A DNA stretch of 64,000 nt from an uncultured Pseudomonadota bacterium (GCA_949290295.1 CASERH010000003.1:650-64649); one strand, 5' to 3'. Counted from the first letter of the stretch, positions 54,090 to 64,000 are shown. Numbers and translations: made by a program. The notes: generated by a model from the sequence alone, not told the origin.

Positions 54090-54177
54090 GGAGAGTTGGC
54101 AGAGTGGTAATGCAGCGGATTGCTAATCCGTCATCGTGAATAACGATGCACAGGTTCGAGTCCTGTACTCTCCGCCA
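54090..54177 (+). tRNA. tRNA-Ser (GCU)
   Basis: 88-nt class II cloverleaf, anticodon loop TTGCTAA, long variable arm, encoded CCA. Confidence 0.93.
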
Positions 54178-54181
54178 CTTC

Positions 54182-54212
54182 AAACCGCCTTCGAAAATCG
54201 AAGGCGGTTTTT
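54182..54212 (+). terminator. Intrinsic terminator of tRNA-Ser
   Basis: 12-bp stem AAACCGCCTTCG / CGAAGGCGGTTT with 5-nt loop, then TT. Confidence 0.8.
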
Positions 54213-54215
54213 GTA

Positions 54216-54244
54216 TTGACGTTTTTTCTTGAACTACATAATAT
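54216..54244 (+). promoter_or_regulatory. Candidate sigma70 promoter of a short unit preceding the three-gene operon
   Basis: TTGACG - 17 nt - TAATAT, near-consensus. Confidence 0.4.
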
Positions 54245-54331
54245 ATTATGTCGATAGCTCTGTTTGTGATGGAATTTGGCTTTTCTCTGTTTTTCTCTGT
54301 GAGTTTACCAGCCGGGGTCTTTTATAATTAA

Positions 54332-54360
54332 GCCTTAGCTTTTATATGCTAAGGTTTTTT
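54332..54360 (+). terminator. Terminator-like hairpin + T-run 22 nt upstream of the operon start (terminator or attenuator)
   Basis: GCCTTAGC / GCTAAGG(T) stem, 8-nt loop, then TTTTTT. Confidence 0.45.
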
Positions 54361-54381
54361 GATCATTGTTGGTGGTGAACC

Positions 54382-55623
54382 GTGCAAAAACGTAAAAAAT
54401 ATAAAACTTTTGAACAAACTAAAGGCGGAATTGTTTTTGTCAGAAACCATGCTAAAAGAGTGAAAATTGCTTTGGAGGTGGCTAAAAGATACCAAAAGCA
54501 ATGGGATTATCTTTTGTGGTTGGCTTCAGCAACTTCTTTGGATGTTGAGATTTATAAAAATAAAATTATTTCAAAAATTGAAAATGGAGCCAAAAGATGT
54601 AAGTTTTTTTCTTTTGAAGAAATATCTTTGCAGGATCAACCTTATTTGCAGCTTTATGATCTGGCATCTGAAAATAGGGTCTTTTGTGTGATCGATGATT
54701 GCCTGAATGTTAAAAACATGGCTTCAGGCAGAACAAAAAGGTTGCTTTCCATGCAGGCTAAATTTGATTTTAGGCTTTTGCTTTCTGAAAATCCGGTGTG
54801 CAGAGGATTGAGAGATGTTTATGCTTTGATGCAGTTTATGGATACTTCCATTTTGAATATGACGGAAACTCAGTTTTCTAATTTGTTTATGCCTTTTTAT
54901 ACTGATGATTTTGATGTTTCTAAGCGTTGGTCTAAGCCTAAATTTGAGCGCCAGGCCATGAAACTCTTAAGGCCATATGTTTTGTTTTGTGACTTGAGCG
55001 ATAATCTTAAAATTAATTATCATGAATATTGGTTTGATTTGACTGATAAAGAAAAAAAGGCTTATCAGGAGGATAAAGAACGTTTTTTGCAGGGAAAAAT
55101 GAGAGTGTTGTTTCTGCAGGCAATTCAAGAGTTTCAATATCTCTACACAATTTGCAGTGCAAAGGTTAAAAAATTGGCTGAATTGCTTAATGATTTTCAG
55201 CAAAAAGGTGAAAAGGTTATTATTTATACCAAATATTTGGGCGAAATTAAATTTTTAAGAGAATCAGGCCTGTTGAGGGGTAAAAAATATGTGATTATGT
55301 CGGGGATGAGTGACAGAAAAAAAGCTGCCCAGCGGTTTGAGGCTGATTATGATATTATGATTTGCACATATAAGGTTGAAATTTCAAGACTGGTCTTGAA
55401 AGGTTGTGCAAATTTGGTATACTTCTCTCAGACTTTTGACTATAAAGATAAGACTCGGGTGTTGTCTAGGTTTTATTGTGATGATGAGTTGTCCCTGAAT
55501 GTTTTTGATTTTTGGGTGAATACCAGATTAGAAACTTTGATGAAGGATAATCTGTCTCGCAAAAAAGAATTGTTGAAAAGTGTTTGTAAATTAATGTCTG
55601 CTGGCGAGGTTGACTGTTTATGA
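54382..55623 (+). CDS. SNF2-family helicase-like protein with degenerate catalytic motifs
   Basis: 413 aa, GTG start. SNF2 layout is recognisable: VIDDCLNVKN (DEAH box position), RLLLSENPVCRGLRDVYALMQFM (LTGTP-x-QN position), EKVIIYTKY (motif IV). Walker A, motif V and motif VI are not conserved. Confidence 0.65.
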   Translation: MQKRKKYKTFEQTKGGIVFVRNHAKRVKIALEVAKRYQKQWDYLLWLASATSLDVEIYKNKIISKIENGAKRCKFFSFEEISLQDQPYLQLYDLASENRVFCVIDDCLNVKNMASGRTKRLLSMQAKFDFRLLLSENPVCRGLRDVYALMQFMDTSILNMTETQFSNLFMPFYTDDFDVSKRWSKPKFERQAMKLLRPYVLFCDLSDNLKINYHEYWFDLTDKEKKAYQEDKERFLQGKMRVLFLQAIQEFQYLYTICSAKVKKLAELLNDFQQKGEKVIIYTKYLGEIKFLRESGLLRGKKYVIMSGMSDRKKAAQRFEADYDIMICTYKVEISRLVLKGCANLVYFSQTFDYKDKTRVLSRFYCDDELSLNVFDFWVNTRLETLMKDNLSRKKELLKSVCKLMSAGEVDCL

Positions 55624-56921
55624 AGATATATCATGATCAGAATGTTTATGATGCAACACAAGAAAGGCTTAAATTCGCTTTTGAGAATTTTGATAATATT
55701 TATGTTTCTTTCTCCGGAGGAAAAGACAGCGGTCTTTTGTTGAGTTTGGTTTTGGATTATAAACGCCGTCATAACATAAAGAAAAAAATAGGTGTTTTTC
55801 ATCAGGATTTTGAGGCGCAATACCAACTGACATCAGAATATGTTTCAAAAATGTTTGATGATAATATTGATGATATAGAGCCTTATTGGGTTTGCTTGCC
55901 GATGGGATCTCGTTGCGCGGTAAGTAATTATCAGATGTATTGGTATCCGTGGGATGATGAAAAAGAAGCTCTTTGGGTTAGGCCTATGCCGGACAAACCA
56001 TATATTATTAATTTAAAAAATAATCCGTTTGAGTTTTATCAATATAAAATGCCGCAGGAGGATTTGTATGCCGAGTTTGCAAAGTGGTATGCCAATCATC
56101 ATGAAGGTACAACCATTTGTATGGTCGGAATCAGGGCTGACGAATCTATTAATCGTTATCGTGCCTATGCCAATGTTCGTAAAACGTTGATGAAAAATTC
56201 TCAATGGACGACCCAACGGGCACCAAATCTTTATAATGCTTACCCGATTTATGATTGGACCACTAAAGATGTTTGGATTGCCAATGCTAAGCAAGGCTTT
56301 GAGTATAACAAAATTTATGACCTTTTTTATCGGGCCGGTGTGCCTATTAGCCAAATGCGGGTTTCCAGTCCTTACCATGAAACGGCAAAGGAAAGCCTTA
56401 ATCTTTATCGAGTGTTGGAGCCTGCCACCTGGGTTAAGGTTGTTTCTCGTGTTCATGGTGCTAATTTTGCTGCAATGTATGGCAATACCAAGCTTATGGG
56501 TGTGGGAAAGATAACTTTGCCAAAAGGGCATACCTGGCGCAGCTATGTTAAATTTTTGTTGGCTACTTTGCCAGATAATATCAGGCAAAACTATATTAAC
56601 AAGTTTAAAACCTCTATCCGTTTTTGGTGGAAAAAGGGGGGGGTTGTCAGCCCAGAGGCTATTGAAGAGTTGGAACAGTGCAATTATCATATTCTGAATA
56701 ATGGCAAGAGCAATTATCATTCGGTTAAAGATAGAATCAGATTTTTGGGAACGCCGGATGACACAGATGATATTAAATCCACGATTGACATTCCTTCTTG
56801 GAAGAGAATGGCTATTTGTATATTGAAAAACGATCATTTGTGCAAATATATGGGCTTTTCCCAGACTAAAAAACAAACTATGCGTGAGAAGGAATTGATT
56901 GAAAAGTATAAAAGTCTATAA
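55620..56921 (+). CDS. PP-loop PAPS-reductase-family enzyme with DUF3440-like C-terminal half (IbrA-like)
   Basis: 433 aa; PP-loop SFSGGKDS near the N-terminus; C-terminal MRVSSPYHE...LYRVLEPATWVKVVSRVHGANFAAMYG resembles DUF3440/IbrA as recalled; ATGA overlap with the upstream gene. Confidence 0.8.
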   Translation: MKIYHDQNVYDATQERLKFAFENFDNIYVSFSGGKDSGLLLSLVLDYKRRHNIKKKIGVFHQDFEAQYQLTSEYVSKMFDDNIDDIEPYWVCLPMGSRCAVSNYQMYWYPWDDEKEALWVRPMPDKPYIINLKNNPFEFYQYKMPQEDLYAEFAKWYANHHEGTTICMVGIRADESINRYRAYANVRKTLMKNSQWTTQRAPNLYNAYPIYDWTTKDVWIANAKQGFEYNKIYDLFYRAGVPISQMRVSSPYHETAKESLNLYRVLEPATWVKVVSRVHGANFAAMYGNTKLMGVGKITLPKGHTWRSYVKFLLATLPDNIRQNYINKFKTSIRFWWKKGGVVSPEAIEELEQCNYHILNNGKSNYHSVKDRIRFLGTPDDTDDIKSTIDIPSWKRMAICILKNDHLCKYMGFSQTKKQTMREKELIEKYKSL

Positions 56922-56930
56922 AAGGATATT

Positions 56931-57449
56931 ATGATGAAGAAATTTACCAGCCCTGTTTATAATGTTATAGCCGTTCCCGTAGAGAAGGTACGGGCTAACG
57001 ACTACAATCCAAACCGGGTGGCCCCGCCGGAAATGCGCCTTTTGGAGCTTTCTATTTGGGAAGATGGTTTCACCCAGCCGGTTGTGTGTTATTATGATAA
57101 AAATGCCGATGAATATATTGTGGTGGATGGTTTCCATCGTTATACCATTATGAAAACGAGCGAGCGTATTTATGCCAGAGAGAGAGGAATGCTGCCGGTG
57201 GTGGTTATTGATAAAGATTTGGGCGAAAGAATGGCTTCTACCATCAGGCATAACCGTGCCAGAGGGAGCCATAGTGTGGATCTGATGAGCAATATCGTGG
57301 CTGAGCTCTTGGAAATGGGCAAAAGCGATGGATGGATTTGTAAAAATATCGGAATGTCTGCCGATGAGCTCTTGCGTCTTAAACAAGTGACCGGGTTGGC
57401 CGCTCTGTTTAGGGATGAAGAATATTCTCACAGTTGGACCGTAAAATAA
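56931..57449 (+). CDS. ParB/Srx-domain protein (IbrB-like)
   Basis: 172 aa; RANDYNPNRVAPPEMRLLELSI...GFTQPVV...VVDGFHRY ParB N-terminal-type motifs; 9 nt after the PAPS-reductase gene, with an AAGGA RBS. Confidence 0.8.
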   Translation: MMKKFTSPVYNVIAVPVEKVRANDYNPNRVAPPEMRLLELSIWEDGFTQPVVCYYDKNADEYIVVDGFHRYTIMKTSERIYARERGMLPVVVIDKDLGERMASTIRHNRARGSHSVDLMSNIVAELLEMGKSDGWICKNIGMSADELLRLKQVTGLAALFRDEEYSHSWTVK

Positions 57450-58450: not shown

Positions 58451-59398
58451 TCAGCGCAATAAAAAGTTGGCTAACTCTGCCGGATTTTCCCATTCAATGG
58501 TAATTTCCAGCACTTTGAATTTGCTTTGCAGGCGAGGCGGTATCTTTACAAAGTCTTTGGCGGTGGTATAAACGGGAGCCTTGTGCTTCTTGCCCAAGTC
58601 CAACAGTTCTTGTAGTTCTGCCTCGCTGTAAAAGTGATGATCAGGAAAGTCTTTGGTGGCAACAATCTTAAAACCGCAGTCCCTTAAGGACTGGTAGAAT
58701 TTCTCCGGGCGGCCGATGCCGGCAAAGGCAACGACATCATAAGTCAGCGGAGAGGGAGAAACTGCTACGGTCTTTCCTCTAAAAACAGGAAGTTTTCCAA
58801 AACTTCCGCTTAAATTATGTTTATCTTCTCCCAAAATAATAACCGCATTAGCTCTTTTTAGTCCCAAGCCCTTAAATTCGCGCAAGGGGCCGGCCGGGAT
58901 GCAAAAGCCGTTTCCAAAGCCAAAATTTCCATCAACGACGATGAAAGAAAAATCTTTGTACAAATACGGATTTTGGAAGCCGTCATCCATAATGATATAG
59001 TCTGCACCTTCTTGTTCGGCTAAGAGAGCCCCTTCATAACGCTGCGGATTAATCACAACTTGTGCCTGACGGGCCAAGAGCAGGGGTTCATCCCCAACAT
59101 CTGCGGCAGTGTGGCGCTTGGGGTCGACCAAAACATCTTTAAGTTTTCCGCCATAGCCGCGGCTGACGAAGTATGGATTTTTGCCATTTTGCTGCAATAG
59201 AGCCGCTAAAGAAACGGCGACCGGGGTTTTGCCTGTGCCGCCGGCGGTTAGGTTGCCAACACAGATGACTTTGGCATCAACCTTTTGAGGGGTGTGTAGC
59301 CACAAGCGCAAAGCTGTCGCAAGGCCATAAATCCAGCCTAGCGGTATAAGTGCTATCGATAAAATATTCTTTGTTTTCCAATATGTTGGCGTTTTCAC
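58451..59398 (-). CDS. lpxK: Tetraacyldisaccharide 4'-kinase
   Basis: 315 aa; P-loop GNLTAGGTGKTP. Confidence 0.92.
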   Translation of the reverse strand: MKTPTYWKTKNILSIALIPLGWIYGLATALRLWLHTPQKVDAKVICVGNLTAGGTGKTPVAVSLAALLQQNGKNPYFVSRGYGGKLKDVLVDPKRHTAADVGDEPLLLARQAQVVINPQRYEGALLAEQEGADYIIMDDGFQNPYLYKDFSFIVVDGNFGFGNGFCIPAGPLREFKGLGLKRANAVIILGEDKHNLSGSFGKLPVFRGKTVAVSPSPLTYDVVAFAGIGRPEKFYQSLRDCGFKIVATKDFPDHHFYSEAELQELLDLGKKHKAPVYTTAKDFVKIPPRLQSKFKVLEITIEWENPAELANFLLR

Positions 59399-60658
59399 TT
59401 AAATATATCCTTTAACTTTATCCATGATGCCATCTAAGACTTTGGCCTCACTGTTAGCCCAATTATAGGCCAAGGAAGCTTTTGCCTCTAGGAGCTCTTT
59501 GTTGCTTAGTAATTGGCTCAGCAGTTCTTCTAGTTCTTGTGTGTCTGTTACTTGCATAATGGCGTCGGCTTTTTTGGCTCTGTTCATTGCATCTGTAAAA
59601 TTATGCATGTGAGGCCCAACAATAACAGCATCTCTTACTCTGGAGGGTTCTATGAAGTTTTGTCCGCCGTGCGGAATGAGTGAGCCGCCGATGAAGACTA
59701 TTTTGGCAATATCATACCAAATTCCCATCTCACCAATGGTATCAGCAATGTAAATATCCGTTGATGGGGATATTTTTTCATTGGCTGAGCGCAAAGATCC
59801 TTTGAGTTCTAATTTTTCTATTTGTTCTTTTATTTCTTTGCCTCTTTGCGGATGGCGCGGGGCAATGAGCGTCAGTAGGTCTGGAAATTTCTCTTTTAGC
59901 CGTTTGTGAATTTTGGCTATGCGGATTTCTTCATCGCTATGGGTGGAGCTAGCAAGCCAAAATTGACGTTTGCCAATTTGTTTTAATATGGCATCTCTTT
60001 TTTCTTCATCTATCGGCAAGGGCAAGCCTGCGTATTTGAGATTACCTAAGCACATACTGCTCTTGGCGCCCAAAACCTGCAGGCGGTAGGCATCTTCCTC
60101 TGACTGGCCGAGGCACAGGCTAAAACAAGCTAACAACTCTTTACTGATAAAATCAAATTGTTGCCACCGCTTGAACGATTTGTTTGAGATTCTTCCATTG
60201 ATGAGAATTAAAGGTATGTTTTTACGTTTGATGCTAGAAAGCATGGCTGGCCAAAATTCAGATTCAAACCACAATGCAACATCGGGATGCCAGTGTTTGA
60301 CAAAGCGGGTGGTGAAAATGGGGTTGTCTATGGGAATAAATTGATGAAAGGCCCTTTCCGGCAAACGTTTGTTCATAACATCGGCAGAGGTGACGGTACC
60401 GGTTGTGACCATAACATGGGCATCCGGATATGTGTCTAATATCTTTTGGATTAGCGGCAGCATGGAGACAGACTCGCCGACAGAGGCTCCGTGCAACCAC
60501 ACAAGTTTTCCTTCCGGACGGGGAAGTTTGGGACGGCCTACACGCTCATTGAAACGTTGTTTATCCTCTTTGCCGTTGTTTAGGCGCTTCTTTATATATC
60601 TCTTAATAACCAAGGGGTAGAGAATCGTGATGAGCGTATTGTAGATCTTTATAAACAT
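59399..60658 (-). CDS. waaA: 3-deoxy-D-manno-octulosonic acid (Kdo) transferase
   Basis: 419 aa; WLHGASVGE motif and GT30-like C-terminal domain; abuts lpxK. Confidence 0.92.
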   Translation of the reverse strand: MFIKIYNTLITILYPLVIKRYIKKRLNNGKEDKQRFNERVGRPKLPRPEGKLVWLHGASVGESVSMLPLIQKILDTYPDAHVMVTTGTVTSADVMNKRLPERAFHQFIPIDNPIFTTRFVKHWHPDVALWFESEFWPAMLSSIKRKNIPLILINGRISNKSFKRWQQFDFISKELLACFSLCLGQSEEDAYRLQVLGAKSSMCLGNLKYAGLPLPIDEEKRDAILKQIGKRQFWLASSTHSDEEIRIAKIHKRLKEKFPDLLTLIAPRHPQRGKEIKEQIEKLELKGSLRSANEKISPSTDIYIADTIGEMGIWYDIAKIVFIGGSLIPHGGQNFIEPSRVRDAVIVGPHMHNFTDAMNRAKKADAIMQVTDTQELEELLSQLLSNKELLEAKASLAYNWANSEAKVLDGIMDKVKGYI

Positions 60659-60661
60659 AGC

Positions 60662-61414
60662 CTATTTCCTGTGGTGTTTTATGTTAACGGCGTTTTTGTC
60701 CGGCAAAACAGGGGAAAGCCCCATTTCTTGGTCGCACTCAATGCTGATTTGGTTGAGGCGGTTTTCCATCTCTTGACGGTATTTTTCCAACTCTTCTTCA
60801 GAGGCATCTGCCGGGACATATAAGGGCTCTGAAATTTTGCAAACTCCTTTTGAAAAGGGAAAAGGAATCATCATTTTGTCCCAAGCTTTTTCTATTATTT
60901 TACTGCTTTTGATGCTGTAAGCTCCGCCAACAATCGGTTTGCCTGTTTTTTGCGCGTAATAAATCGGGGAGCGCCTCATTATCATCCTGGGGCCTCTGGG
61001 GCCGTCCGGAATGATGCAAATAGATGTTTCTTTCTTTAGGGTTCTCATCAAATCCAGGGCACCACCTTTGGCGTTTTCATTGGAGGAGCCGCCAATAATG
61101 CCAATGCCAAAGCGTTTGAGAAGCCCGGCTATCATTCGGCCATCGCGGTGCAGAGATACAAGAGCGTCTAGGGGCAAATTCCTTTGTTTGAAAAAAGGGA
61201 GCATTAATGCTCGGCCGTGCCAAATTACCAAGATGACACCGCCTTTTTCTCTGGCTAATTGGTGAAACTCTTCAACCCGTTCGGTTCTCCAGCGAGTGGT
61301 GAGGCCGACAAATTTGGCATAGAGATAAAAAACAAGAGATATCAGCCACATAACGGCAGATGTTTCTCCGAGTTTCTTTAGTGGTTTTTTGACTAGTTTT
61401 TTATAAAGGCTCAT
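60662..61414 (-). CDS. DUF374 (lysophospholipid acyltransferase-like) protein
   Basis: 250 aa; WHGR...DGPRGPR motifs recalled for DUF374; 3 nt upstream of waaA. Confidence 0.8.
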   Translation of the reverse strand: MSLYKKLVKKPLKKLGETSAVMWLISLVFYLYAKFVGLTTRWRTERVEEFHQLAREKGGVILVIWHGRALMLPFFKQRNLPLDALVSLHRDGRMIAGLLKRFGIGIIGGSSNENAKGGALDLMRTLKKETSICIIPDGPRGPRMIMRRSPIYYAQKTGKPIVGGAYSIKSSKIIEKAWDKMMIPFPFSKGVCKISEPLYVPADASEEELEKYRQEMENRLNQISIECDQEMGLSPVLPDKNAVNIKHHRK

Positions 61415-61424
61415 TGTTTTTCAC

Positions 61425-61676
61425 TTAGCTACCGGAAACAAGTTTGGTGACGCTGATGCCGATTGTTTCGTTATCGGTGACAACAACTTCTCCGTGGCCG
61501 ATTAAGACATCGTTGGCGTAGACGTCTACATAATCATTAATACTGCGGTCAAGCTCAACAACCGCACCGCGCCCGAGCTTTAACAGCTGGTGTACACGCA
61601 GGTCCGCTGTGCCAAGGGTGACGGAAATATCGACCGAAATGTCTTCGTTGGACAAGAAATTTTTATTAATCGGCAT
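61425..61676 (-). CDS. FliN/SpoA-domain protein (stand-alone, 83 aa)
   Basis: VTLGTADLRVHQLLKLGRGAVVELDRSINDYVDVYANDVLIGHGEVVV matches the FliN/SpaO C-terminal domain pattern; 10 nt upstream of the DUF374 gene. Confidence 0.8.
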   Translation of the reverse strand: MPINKNFLSNEDISVDISVTLGTADLRVHQLLKLGRGAVVELDRSINDYVDVYANDVLIGHGEVVVTDNETIGISVTKLVSGS

Positions 61677-61835
61677 TTTTTACTCCATATGGTTATTTGT
61701 GCCTATTATATATATTTTTTTTAATCTGCAAAATCTTTATTATCACTTATCACAATGAAAAAAATCTTTTTTGTGGATTAAGCAGTTTATAATTGCTTAT
61801 GGAAAAGCATTGTGGCAAAAAAATTAGATGTGAAT

Positions 61836-61864
61836 CTTGCAGAAGCAAATAGCTTTTCTTATAT
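61836..61864 (+). promoter_or_regulatory. Possible RpoH (sigma32)-type promoter of lon
   Basis: CTTG - 18 nt - CTTATAT, close to the alphaproteobacterial CTTG-N17-CYTATNT pattern as recalled; about 35 nt upstream of the lon ATG. Confidence 0.25.
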
Positions 61865-61897
61865 AAGTTGTATAACTTTCTTTATTATAGGTGTGAA

Positions 61898-64000
61898 ATG
61901 GCTTTGAAAAAAGAAAAATATCCGGTGTTGCCTTTGCGCGATATCGTTGTTTATCCAAAAATGATTGTTCCGCTTTTTGTCGGAAGAGAAAAATCTATTC
62001 GCGCGCTGCAAGAAGTGGTCGATAACGACCAAAATATTGTTCTTGTTACCCAAAAAGATGCCGCAGTGGAAACGCCAAATGGTGATGATGTCTTCCATGT
62101 GGGAACTTTGGGGACGGTTTTGCAGCTTTTGAGATTGCCGGACGGGACTGTCAAAGTTCTGGTCGAGGGGCTGGAAAGAGTTAAACTCAATAAAATCTAC
62201 GATGAACCTGAGTATTTATCGGCCAATATCACTTTGATGCCGGAAGTGGAAGAAAAAAATCCGGAATTGGAGGGAATCGTTCGTGCGGTTTTGTCCCAGT
62301 TTGAGGAATATGTGAAGTTGTCTAAGAAAACAGCGCCGGAAGTGTTGGTCGCTGTTAACCAAATTGACGACTACAGTAAGCTTGCAGATACAATTGCCTC
62401 TCATTTGGCTCTTAAAATCAGCGATAAACAGGCTTTGTTGGAAGGAGCTACTCTCTCTGAGAGATTTGAAAAAATCTTGGGCTTCATGGATTCAGAAATT
62501 ACTTTGCTTGAGGTGGAAAACAGAATCCGTAACCGTGTCAAAAAGCAAATGGAAAAAAGCCAGAAGGAATATTACCTCAATGAGCAGATGAAGGCTATTC
62601 AGAAAGAACTCGGCGACGGTGAGGAGGACGCTGAGATATCTGAATATATGAAGAAAATTGAAAAAACTAAACTTTCTAAAGAAGCAAAAGAAAAGGCTTT
62701 GGCAGAGGTTAAAAAGCTCAAAAATATGAGCGTGATGTCGGCTGAAGCCACCGTGGTTCGTAATTATCTTGATTGGCTTTTGGATATTCCTTGGAAAAAA
62801 CGTTCTAAAGTTAATAAAGACCTTTCAAAAGCTGTGGAGATTTTGGAGGCTGATCACTATGGTTTGGACAAGGTCAAAGAACGCATTGTTGAATATTTGG
62901 CCGTGCAAGCCAGGGCTGACAAGGTTAAAGGGCCGATTTTGTGCTTAGTCGGGCCTCCGGGAGTTGGTAAGACCTCTTTGGGAAAATCTATTGCTAAGGC
63001 AACCGGGCGTGCTTTTGTGCGGGCCTCTTTGGGCGGCATGCGCGATGAGGCCGAGATAAGGGGGCACAGACGTACCTATATCGGGTCTATGCCGGGCAAG
63101 ATCATAAAGGGCATGAAAAAAGCCGGTACGTCTAATCCGTTGTTCTTGCTCGATGAAATCGACAAGATGGGGAATGACTACCGTGGTGATCCGGCTTCTG
63201 CCTTGTTGGAGGTTCTTGACCCTGAGCAAAACTCCGCTTTTAACGATCATTATCTGGAAGTGGATTATGACTTGTCGGATGTGATGTTTGTGACAACCGC
63301 AAACTCTTTGGATATGCCGCGGCCTTTGATGGATCGTATGGAAATTATCAGACTTTCGGGATATACGGAAGATGAAAAAATCGAGATTGCCAAGCGCCAC
63401 CTGATTCCCAAGATTTTTGTGGAAAATGCGGTTACACCTAGTGAGCTTGAGATTTCTGAAGATGCTGTGCGCTCCATTATCAGGTATTATACCAGAGAGG
63501 CCGGGGTGCGCAATCTGGAAAGAGAGTTGGCCACCATTGCCAGAAAGGCTGTTAAAGAGACGCTTTTGGCCAAGAAAAAACAAAAAATCACCGTCACGGC
63601 CAAGAATATAGATAAGTATCTAGGGGTTATCAAATATCGCTACGGCGAGGCTGAGGAAGAAGACCATGTCGGGGTTACGACCGGTTTGGCTTGGACTGAG
63701 GTCGGCGGAGATATCTTGTTTATTGAGGCGGTTGATATGCCGGGTAAAGGAGTGGTCAAACAAACAGGTAAGCTGGGTGAGGTGATGAAGGAATCCATTG
63801 AAACAGCTTATTCGGTTGTGCGTTCTCATTCTAAAGACTTGGGTATTGACCCGAAAGTTTTTGAAAAAACAGACATCCATGTTCATGTGCCGGAAGGTGC
63901 AACGCCAAAGGATGGCCCATCTGCCGGTATCGCCATGTATACAACTTTGGTTTCGGTTTTGACTAAAATTCCGGTACGCAAGGATGTGGCCATGACCGGT
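61898..64000 (+). CDS. lon: ATP-dependent protease Lon (3'-truncated by the window end)
   Basis: My own translation: MALKKEKYPVLPLRDIVVYPKMIVPLFVGREKSI..., Walker A GPPGVGKTS near 62950, catalytic PKDGPSAG near 63910. The frame is open to 64000, so it is absent from the ORF track. Confidence 0.97.
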   Translation, partial: MALKKEKYPVLPLRDIVVYPKMIVPLFVGREKSIRALQEVVDNDQNIVLVTQKDAAVETPNGDDVFHVGTLGTVLQLLRLPDGTVKVLVEGLERVKLNKIYDEPEYLSANITLMPEVEEKNPELEGIVRAVLSQFEEYVKLSKKTAPEVLVAVNQIDDYSKLADTIASHLALKISDKQALLEGATLSERFEKILGFMDSEITLLEVENRIRNRVKKQMEKSQKEYYLNEQMKAIQKELGDGEEDAEISEYMKKIEKTKLSKEAKEKALAEVKKLKNMSVMSAEATVVRNYLDWLLDIPWKKRSKVNKDLSKAVEILEADHYGLDKVKERIVEYLAVQARADKVKGPILCLVGPPGVGKTSLGKSIAKATGRAFVRASLGGMRDEAEIRGHRRTYIGSMPGKIIKGMKKAGTSNPLFLLDEIDKMGNDYRGDPASALLEVLDPEQNSAFNDHYLEVDYDLSDVMFVTTANSLDMPRPLMDRMEIIRLSGYTEDEKIEIAKRHLIPKIFVENAVTPSELEISEDAVRSIIRYYTREAGVRNLERELATIARKAVKETLLAKKKQKITVTAKNIDKYLGVIKYRYGEAEEEDHVGVTTGLAWTEVGGDILFIEAVDMPGKGVVKQTGKLGEVMKESIETAYSVVRSHSKDLGIDPKVFEKTDIHVHVPEGATPKDGPSAGIAMYTTLVSVLTKIPVRKDVAMTG

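Follow-up and report, generated by a model that had tools for sequence, protein, structure and literature searches.

A phage-derived IbrA-IbrB locus with a motor-less SNF2-like partner, domesticated in gut Alphaproteobacteria as a candidate DNA-modifying module

Introduction

What work is done by a protein pair that many bacteria and phages carry, and what has become of that work in a lineage that keeps beside the pair a relative of the SNF2 DNA translocases stripped of its motor motifs? These questions are raised by a three-gene operon in a 64,000-nucleotide stretch of DNA from an uncultured Pseudomonadota bacterium (GCA_949290295.1 CASERH010000003.1:650-64649), the whole of which is referred to here as the window. 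On its plus strand, gene 1 (54382-55623) begins with a GTG codon and encodes a 413-residue protein with an SNF2 core. Gene 2 (55620-56921) encodes a 433-residue PP-loop protein of the IbrA type, in which an N-terminal domain resembling phosphoadenosine phosphosulfate (PAPS) reductases is followed by DUF3440, and gene 3 (56931-57449) encodes a 172-residue protein of the IbrB type, with an N-terminal ParB/Srx domain and a helix-turn-helix (HTH).

The initial annotation of the window had described these genes as three co-directional open reading frames (ORFs) packed into an operon, and had proposed that they form a self-contained DNA-targeting module, a candidate DNA-modification or anti-mobile-element system without an assigned function. 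The translations confirm the three ORFs and their strand, and both junctions are as described: genes 1 and 2 overlap by four nucleotides (ATGA, 55620-55623), and 9 nt, containing an AAGGA ribosome-binding site for gene 3, lie between genes 2 and 3. To our knowledge the function of IbrAB is defined only genetically, as activation of the prophage eib genes in Escherichia coli ECOR-9, and we know of no biochemistry for the pair. The view that the triad has no assigned biochemical function is likewise supported, since none was found in the literature; full-text searches returned no biochemical or phenotypic work on the triad or on IbrAB beyond annotation, a prior computational mention being possible. 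Here we show that the operon belongs to one lineage in which a phage-derived module was captured once and domesticated, with loss of its SNF2 motor and of a fourth gene, and we consider what the remaining proteins might do.

Results

An SNF2-like protein without motor motifs

Gene 1 matches the Pfam model SNF2-rel_dom at 30.5 bits, over profile positions 128-255 of 290 only, together with a weak match to Helicase_C, and gives partial matches to the SNF2-type models ZorD and DpdE in PADLOC. A profile of the gene 1 family finds the Sulfolobus Snf2 core (1z63) in the PDB with E=3.5e-31, and the AlphaFold2 model, which is confident (predicted local distance difference test score, pLDDT, 88; predicted template modelling score, pTM, 0.85), consists of two RecA-like alpha/beta lobes. 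Within this fold the catalytic motifs have been replaced. Motif I reads NHAKR where active copies have GTGKT, motif II reads DDC (IDDC) in place of DES, motif III SENP in place of NGTP and motif VI SRFYCDDE in place of HRxYRxGQ, and motif V is likewise degenerate. The description of gene 1 as an eroded SNF2 protein was therefore accurate, with motifs I, II, III and VI replaced and the SNF2 fold kept, as was the remark that the gene is AT-richer than its surroundings (34.0% G+C, against 43.3% for the window; gene 2 has 37.8% and gene 3 45.5%).

The copies found in phages, Firmicutes and Listeria retain GTGKT or GSGKT, DES, NGTP and RxxRxGQ. Motifs I and VI are absent from all 22 copies in alphaproteobacterial genomes, seven of which also lack the Asp-Glu of motif II. 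Because motifs I, II and VI are not those of an active ATPase, gene 1 is classed as derived from the SNF2 family but not as a functional member of it; its product, predicted not to act as an ATPase, probably serves as a scaffold or DNA-binding subunit without motor activity.

The gene itself is maintained. Members of the family are approximately 405-432 residues long, and more than 100 of the dead copies are full length and free of stop codons. The structural blocks of SNF2 are still conserved in the dead clade, and the ratio of nonsynonymous to synonymous substitution rates (dN/dS) comes to 0.07-0.11 when gene 1 is compared with its closest relatives and does not exceed 0.36 for deeper pairs, for which the synonymous rate (dS) is near saturation. 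Retained length, low dN/dS and conserved structural blocks together show that the apparent erosion reflects loss of the motor across the whole clade, and that the gene is no pseudogene. It is nonetheless the fastest-evolving protein of its neighbourhood, at 42-53% identity.

In a tree of 171 sequences, built by neighbour-joining, the 111 ATPase-dead copies form one exclusive clade, the sister group of which consists of 28 ATPase-intact copies. The monophyly of the dead copies and the position of their intact sisters point to a single capture and a single inactivation, within the limits of a neighbour-joining phylogeny and of a host assignment that is indirect for the sister phages.

Phage relatives and a lost fourth gene

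All four of the sister-clade copies that we looked up (P0117, P0089, P0104 and P0108) lie in phage genomes or phage-like gene sets, and three of these occupy temperate-phage early regions, just after the integrase and HTH regulators. The neighbours of the intact sister copies include Lar restriction-alleviation proteins, orphan DNA methylases (N6/N4 and C5), GapR, a Tad2-like protein and an ART-polyvalent protein. In phages of Streptococcus and Clostridium the module occupies an accessory position, with the lysis genes on one side and the lysogeny or early genes on the other.

The intact loci share a further component. The SNF2 start could be resolved at 42 ATPase-intact loci, and at every one of them it is abutted or overlapped by an ORF on the same strand that is 67-437 codons long (among them L175:8751-9017, L176:8769-9017, L177:8751-9017, L007:5769-6017, L173:6445-6819, L009:7406-7792 and L010:6440-7609). 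The bodies of these fourth-gene products are variable (phrog_27058, phrog_5809 and phrog_16123 are among them), and what they have in common is an acidic C-terminal tail of the approximate form EVEIIDELER. In leave-one-out scoring against a matrix of this tail the median is 6.9, compared with a 95th percentile of -4.7 for the background, a signal that may in part reflect the overlapping ribosome-binding region, with a motif that spans more than 10 residues. An ORF occupies the corresponding position at only 6 of 29 dead-clade loci and all six score like background, and tblastn finds no remnant of the fourth gene upstream of gene 1 in the window. The lineage of the window has thus lost a gene that intact loci carry and which is likely to encode a fourth subunit or adaptor.

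At the chromosomal dead-clade loci examined, neither phage genes nor adjacent defence genes are left. Taken with the selection on genes 2 and 3 described below, these observations show a phage-derived module that was captured once by one uncultured lineage of gut Alphaproteobacteria and domesticated there, with loss of the SNF2 motor and the adaptor and with all three remaining proteins under purifying selection.

Distribution of the IbrA-IbrB pair

At 50% identity (E<=1e-30) the IbrA family falls into 674 clusters. We surveyed 160 IbrA loci, half of them in species-representative genomes and half on IMG/VR viral contigs (80 each), a sample that is biased to the sequences nearest the query. 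IbrB follows IbrA in the same orientation at 158 of the 160 loci where the contig had room. The SNF2-like gene lies directly upstream at 23 of 24 alphaproteobacterial loci, the 24th of which ends at a contig edge, at approximately 32 of the 80 viral loci and at 2 of the 56 loci from Firmicutes genomes. The order and strand of SNF2, IbrA and IbrB recur in 54 independent loci, and the start/stop overlap of the junctions is conserved; the triad is accordingly a real recurrent unit with translational coupling and not a chance adjacency. Across the survey, loci that have the pair alone show no conserved neighbour in place of the SNF2-like gene. IbrA-IbrB is the constant core, and the SNF2-like gene is a recurrent but optional partner. 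The SNF2-like gene is missing from the E. coli ibrAB and ybdNM loci, from the Klebsiella plasmid locus examined and from most loci in Firmicutes, and the initial proposal of a triad needs correction on this point. As most IbrAB loci manage without it, DNA translocation is not essential to the activity of the core.

The organism is an uncultured alphaproteobacterium of the gut; its closest genome is 'Alphaproteobacteria bacterium E40__bin9', and CAG:495 and 'Ca. Scatocola' are among its relatives. The triad is annotated in phages of Streptococcus thermophilus and S. equinus, in a Clostridium scindens phage and in a Fusobacterium phage; in phages of Flavobacterium columnare the gene order is SNF2-ParB-PAPS. 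It belongs to the core genome of Listeria monocytogenes as lmo1311-lmo1310-lmo1309, and the Listeria triad has been listed earlier in comparative tables. The pair is present on 725 plasmids, the Klebsiella locus examined having no SNF2 gene, and ybdNM is found in 5415 of 5426 complete E. coli genomes, about half of which have a second copy on an island. On the questions raised in the initial annotation, adjacency to an SNF2-like gene is recurrent, phage settings are common, and the chromosomal copies lie outside defence islands.

Several neighbours of these loci may be recorded. In Listeria a class I S-adenosylmethionine (SAM) methyltransferase gene (L173:9834-10565) directly follows lmo1309, and genes for DNA or SAM-dependent methyltransferases repeatedly adjoin the intact module (L173, and the flanks of L175, L177 and L007). 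On the Klebsiella plasmid pTK421_2 (IncFIB/IncR) the IbrAB pair (L172:8977-10838) adjoins the iroBCDN salmochelin locus. The island copy of E. coli O157:H7 (L174:6980-9183) is preceded by a gene for a 722-residue AAA protein and followed by one for a PerC-family regulator.

The IbrA-type protein

The three domain families named in the initial annotation are confirmed by profile searches. Gene 2 scores above the Pfam cut-offs for both DUF3440 (PF11922; 264.3 bits, cut-off 25) and PAPS_reduct (PF01507; 47.3 bits, cut-off 22.5), matches phrog_2302 with E=3e-112 and aligns over its full length with the IbrA type of E. coli (35% identity, 424 columns, E=2e-81). The proteins matched by such searches are named 'Co-activator of prophage gene expression IbrA' in their sources. 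Both the PP-loop (SFSGGKDS) and the RxDES motif of gene 2 are intact; RxDES is invariant in IbrA, as are residues S32, G34, K35, D36 and S37 across 159 sequences. The dN/dS of gene 2 is approximately 0.03. The gene is predicted to encode the catalytic subunit of the module, acting as an ATP pyrophosphatase or adenylyltransferase. Among the best 150 of the 674 clusters, the only domain that long proteins add to IbrA is one partial ABC_tran match (P0442).

Searching folds with residues 1-250 of IbrA returned CysH/APS reductase, FMN adenylyltransferase and CysD, followed by TtuA, NcsA and TilS. None of the curated models for DndC, CysH, CysD or TilS accounts for gene 2. The score against the DndC model TIGR03183 is 23.6 bits compared with a cut-off of 290.4, and for CysH the scores are 21.6 against 165.1 (TIGR00434) and 15.4 against 254.2 (TIGR02057); gene 2 is also far under the curated cut-offs for CysD and TilS. 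The match to BrxP is a partial one (24.2 bits, residues 164-234) in a gene with housekeeping neighbours, and the PADLOC matches to DndC and BrxP are all partial, at 28 bits or less. The initial annotation had leaned on kinship with DndC and BrxP, for which we find no specific affinity and no universally conserved cysteine. In the sampled subfamily two cysteines, C92 and C408, reach 97% conservation, but the enterobacterial clade has alanine for C92, and copies from Clostridium and Flavobacterium phages have other residues at both positions, so that the IbrA alignment contains no cysteine conserved throughout. Sulfur chemistry based on a cysteine of IbrA is rejected on this pattern.

A C-terminal catalytic cysteine motif is typical of CysH. 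No such motif of the ECG type is present in the translation of gene 2, where DUF3440 takes the place of the CysH C-terminus. Phage genes of the IbrA type are widely labelled 'phosphoadenosine phosphosulfate reductase' in phage records, and 'moron, auxiliary metabolic gene' in PHROGs. Because the catalytic motif of CysH is absent and a ParB-like gene always stands alongside, this sulfur-metabolism label is probably a misannotation.

The IbrB-type protein

For gene 3 the Pfam model ParB_N gives 20.5 bits, under its cut-off of 26.3, and assignment to the family comes instead from phrog_2159 (E=2e-80). The protein is 48% identical over its full length to an IbrB-like protein of E. coli (E=3e-51) and aligns with residues 22-160 of Spo0J (1vz0), HTH included. 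It carries the motifs NDYNPN, DGFHRY and RHNRARGSH, and in 145 IbrB sequences NxxNPN, DGxHR and RHNxARG are invariant along with the HTH. DGFHRY stands at the position of GERRY in Spo0J; the GERRxR box with which partition ParB proteins bind CTP is absent, and the 172-residue protein stops after the HTH, without the C-terminal dimerisation domain of partition ParB. Identity as a partition ParB acting as a CTP clamp is rejected on these grounds and on the score against TIGR00180 (14 bits, cut-off 58), and no PADLOC model, that for DndB included, matches gene 3. The dN/dS of gene 3 is 0.04-0.06. The gene is predicted to encode a subunit that binds a nucleoside triphosphate (NTP) and DNA.

Synteny and allele exchange

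The operon begins 204 nt after a gene for tRNA-Ser(GCT) (54090-54177, plus strand; called by ARAGORN and, at 62 bits, by the Rfam tRNA model), in agreement with the distance of about 200 nt noted at first. We considered whether this adjacency is a signature of integration. The closest clade keeps the order mutL-Zip-tRNA-Ser-triad-(reductase)-lpxK-waaA, and the same tRNA gene lies upstream of the triad in L001, L015, L017, L021 and L023, and in inverted form in L019; the synteny block is shared by genomes in which lpxK is only approximately 58-65% identical. No att-like repeat of the tRNA 3' end is found downstream and there is no integrase. Position beside the tRNA gene is therefore inherited and not the scar of an insertion, and a tRNA-integrated genomic island is refuted. 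More distant members of the dead clade are found in two other ordinary chromosomal contexts, one between NUDIX/adh_short and cold-shock genes and the other between MsrAB/HD and citrate transporter/rmlACD genes.

Within the same genome pairs IbrA is 82-85% and IbrB 86-90% identical, compared with approximately 78% for mutL, 58-65% for lpxK and 61-70% for the reductase, so that both proteins of the core are more conserved than MutL or LpxK. The window was also compared with its close relative L023 at nucleotide level. The flanks of the operon are 95-97% identical (95-98% before the end of the tRNA gene), whereas gene 1 is 69-83% and gene 2 84-89% identical, and dS rises from 0.2-0.3 in the flanks to 1.2-1.6 within genes 1 and 2. 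The spacer between the tRNA gene and gene 1 is poorly conserved as well (69-80% nucleotide identity). As identity drops right after tRNA-Ser and recovers inside gene 3 (54151-57000), the pattern suggests that the block of genes 1 and 2 is an allele that was replaced by recombination. A similar, milder drop against L023 affects the waaA region (59250-60750).

Leader and flanking genes

Two hairpins lie in the 204-nt leader. One, terminator-like (54182-54210, plus strand), has a 13-bp stem with seven GC pairs followed by a T-run and closes the transcription unit of tRNA-Ser. The other (CCTTAGC...GCTAAGG, 54333-54354) was called on the minus strand and is followed on the plus strand by TTTTTT (to 54360); it lies approximately 25 nt 5' of the GTG start of gene 1. 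It may belong to a leader or attenuator, or it may terminate transcription in both directions. An Rfam scan of the leader matched the tRNA alone and gave no family for this second hairpin.

On one side the operon is flanked by genes for MgtE, LspA, two M16 peptidases, PGI, mutL and Zip, and on the other by those for an aldo-keto reductase, lpxK, waaA, DUF374 and FliN, all of housekeeping type. As the initial annotation had it, no desulfurase, methyltransferase, nuclease or integrase is encoded within approximately 10 kb of the triad.

Two further segments of the window differ from their counterparts in relatives. A gene for an ADP-ribosylglycohydrolase (PF03747; 52396-53235), with 32% G+C overall and 20% at third codon positions, lies between mutL and Zip and overlaps the start of the latter by 8 nt. 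L023, which is otherwise 94-97% identical, lacks it and has a gap of only 29 nt between mutL and Zip; the gene looks like a recent strain-specific insertion. The end of the window (61600-64000) is AT-rich, with 31% G+C at 61600-62000, and contains minus-strand ORFs of 78, 211 and 87 codons that have no Pfam match. The syntenic relative L001 has a Lon protease gene at the matching position, and the segment may be another that varies between strains.

Discussion

The sequence evidence assembled here leads us to favour, tentatively and at a little less than an even chance, the reading that the operon encodes a DNA-bound adenylating or modifying complex, now domesticated. The 4-nt and 9-nt junctions suggest that the SNF2-like protein, IbrA and IbrB form one complex on DNA. 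IbrB would bind DNA through its HTH, and the nucleotide pocket of its ParB/Srx domain would act as a switch or accommodate a cofactor. Duplex DNA would be gripped by the SNF2-like protein: the phage form would translocate, allowing the complex to scan a genome, and the dead form in this host would be a static clamp or scaffold. IbrA would spend ATP, by cleavage between the alpha and beta phosphates at the PP-loop, and attach AMP to a group on the DNA, or on a ligand bound there; the resulting covalent mark or activated intermediate would change how the DNA is read. A phage would in this way be protected from restriction or govern its early genes. The host would govern a fixed set of its loci, in keeping with eib activation, the only genetic phenotype known for IbrAB.

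This reading is favoured by the recurrence of the architecture, the intact catalytic motifs of the core, purifying selection, the company the module keeps in phages, and precedent. DNA is taken as the working surface, in preference to RNA or a small molecule, because the SNF2 partner comes from a family of duplex-DNA translocases. DNA-modifying enzymes elsewhere have ParB-like partners, as DpdA is helped by the ParB-like NTPase DpdB (PMC12839542) and DndC is accompanied by DndB (PMC10853773), and the inactive SNF2 C-domain of DndH acts as a DNA binder (PMC10853773). Several observations pull the other way. The nearest folds to IbrA are those of small-molecule enzymes and then of tRNA-modifying PP-loop enzymes; the AlphaFold2 model of DUF3440 is poor (pLDDT 35-60), so that its fold gives no hint of a substrate; the SNF2 partner is absent from most IbrAB loci; and the argument from phage neighbourhoods is one of guilt by association. 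In addition, no gene for a nucleophile donor or for a reader or effector is linked in the window. A bolder version can be formulated, in which IbrA-IbrB with an optional SNF2 motor and a tail-motif adaptor would be an uncharacterised DNA-marking machine, a ParB/Srx-guided PP-loop enzyme that adenylates DNA into a new modification and is found in phages and gut bacteria, on more than 700 plasmids, in Listeria and in nearly every E. coli (ybdNM), and the window would hold a motor-dead, adaptor-less version turned into a fixed epigenetic or regulatory device. We regard this version as possible, though doubtful.

The main rival explanation, which we consider rather unlikely, is that the proteins are a non-covalent transcriptional co-activator or anti-silencer. 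VirB is an anti-silencer of the ParB family and RapA acts on RNA polymerase; by analogy, IbrB would load on DNA as a nucleotide-dependent clamp and open up silenced regions, the SNF2-like protein would act on DNA or on RNA polymerase in the manner of RapA, and IbrA, instead of modifying DNA, would supply or consume the nucleotide ligand. The only phenotype attached to the family is indeed that of a 'co-activator of prophage gene expression' (annotations; PMC5736727), and the HTH and nucleotide pocket of IbrB, the PerC-family regulator that follows the E. coli O157 copy and the tight repression of ybdNM by YbdO (PMC9068703) would all sit well with such a role. A regulator of particular loci would also be well served by a copy that is fixed in the chromosome and has an SNF2 scaffold that does not move. 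However, IbrB has DGFHRY where the clamp-forming ParB and VirB proteins have the GERRxR CTP box, an invariant PP-loop enzyme as obligate partner across 160 loci is not obviously needed by a regulator, and the virulent and temperate phages that carry the module infect very different hosts with no common target genes apparent. It is less probable still that the locus provides anti-phage or anti-plasmid defence or superinfection exclusion, brought by prophages and plasmids and kept by the host, through depletion of ATP or nucleotides by the PP-loop and ParB/Srx enzymes or through the marking or attack of incoming DNA, and the initial proposal of an anti-mobile-element system is not favoured by our data: the module is mainly borne by phages, virulent ones included, and by plasmids, and its intact relatives occupy regions of the counter-defence type. 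The rapid evolution of gene 1, and the divergent allele of genes 1 and 2 in a backbone that is 95-97% identical, are what is seen with conflict genes, and there is weak PADLOC similarity to ZorD, DpdE, DndC and BrxP. PAPS-reductase and ParBc proteins have moreover been listed as predicted NAP-based defence effectors (bioRxiv 10.64898/2026.04.06.716658), and ParB/Srx proteins have been proposed as nucleotide-degrading effectors (PMC10853773). Yet no model of PADLOC-DB v2 was matched over its full length (matches to ZorD, DpdE, DrmD, DndC and BrxP are partial, at 40 bits or less), no nuclease or effector is linked, housekeeping genes surround the chromosomal copies in each of at least three contexts, and long vertical retention of an IbrAB pair that is better conserved than mutL is atypical of defence.

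The fold neighbours of IbrA (CysH, APS reductase, FMN adenylyltransferase and CysD, then TtuA, NcsA and TilS) also raise the prospect of an RNA-directed or small-molecule enzyme pair, acting in tRNA modification like TilS, TtuA or NcsA or in sulfur or flavin nucleotide metabolism, as the 'cysH auxiliary metabolic gene' label would have it. The ParB/Srx fold includes small-molecule kinases, with weak matches to SbnI and SerK. We nonetheless hold this to be quite improbable, given that the CysH, CysD and TilS models are far under their cut-offs, that neither the C-terminal cysteine motif of CysH nor any universal cysteine is present, that no sulfur-assimilation genes are linked, and that both partners of IbrA, the obligate ParB-HTH protein and the recurrent SNF2 protein, are of kinds that handle DNA. 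Finally, an AT-rich gene 1 without any ATPase motif might be functionless, the operon then being a decaying remnant of a cryptic prophage or a toxin-antitoxin pair, as which TASmania listed lmo1309/lmo1310 on the basis of neighbourhood (PMC7020466). That call rested on guilt by association only, and the low dN/dS of gene 1 even at near-saturated depth, the full-length dead copies, the conserved structural blocks with their confident model and a locus in which no other phage genes are left make decay very improbable.

Whether or not the complex proves to adenylate DNA, the locus bears on a widespread group of 'known unknowns'. IbrAB pairs form a core operon of E. coli, are carried by hundreds of plasmids of Klebsiella and E. 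coli, and occur in phages of dairy bacteria, gut bacteria and fish pathogens and in the core genome of Listeria sensu stricto. The labels they routinely receive (partition protein, cysH sulfur-metabolism gene, toxin-antitoxin pair) are wrong. Comparison of the window with its relatives shows that the full module has four genes, including one for an active SNF2 motor, and that its home is in early, counter-defence-type regions of phages. The dead-motor lineage separates what the core needs (IbrA, IbrB and an SNF2-shaped scaffold) from what a mobile lifestyle needs (translocation and the adaptor), and is in this sense a natural dissection of a widespread module. Its chemistry could be pursued in tractable systems: lmo1309-1312 of Listeria, the phages of S. 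thermophilus and ybdNM of E. coli.

Comparison with known systems

The closest counterparts of genes 2 and 3 are IbrA/IbrB of the E. coli ECOR-9 island and YbdN/YbdM, which belong to the same two families and have the same gene order but no SNF2-like gene. For the whole operon it is the four-gene form, found in S. thermophilus phage CHPC877 (0026-0029), in Clostridium phage phiCs5676-1 (genes 0028-0031) and in L. monocytogenes (lmo1312-lmo1309), where homologous proteins are encoded in the same order with overlapping junctions. These loci, for which no experimental study was found in the literature, keep the ATPase motifs and the upstream fourth gene, both of which are gone from the clade of the window.

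Resemblance to the established DNA-marking systems is one of parts. As the initial annotation had concluded, the locus is not a standard Dnd, Ssp, BREX or restriction-modification locus; the DndC model is far under its cut-off, the BrxP match is partial, and the partner genes of both are absent. Dnd likewise brings together, for action on DNA, a PP-loop enzyme related to PAPS reductases and a member of the ParB superfamily, and has an ATPase that scans DNA (PMC10853773), but the window contains no DndA, DndD, DndE or DndFGH and IbrA is without the cysteines of DndC. In Dpd, a ParB-like NTPase is the obligate helper of a DNA-modifying enzyme and the SNF2 helicase DpdE is part of the system (PMC12839542); the window has neither a transglycosylase nor preQ0 genes, its match to DpdE is partial at approximately 17 bits, and the putative catalytic enzyme here is a PP-loop protein. 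BrxP of BREX type 4, a PAPS reductase fused to DUF4007, similarly places an enzyme of this family in a DNA-marking system (PMC12839542), whereas IbrA has DUF3440 as its accessory domain and the window is without BrxC, PglZ, BrxL and a desulfurase. A parallel to gene 1 is DndH, in which an ATPase-dead SNF2-type module has been kept for DNA binding (PMC10853773); DndH retains lobe 2 only, within a large multidomain protein, while gene 1 retains both lobes and stands alone. IbrAB modules themselves were thus already known, if uncharacterised, and what is new here is the motor-dead, adaptor-less and chromosomally fixed form.

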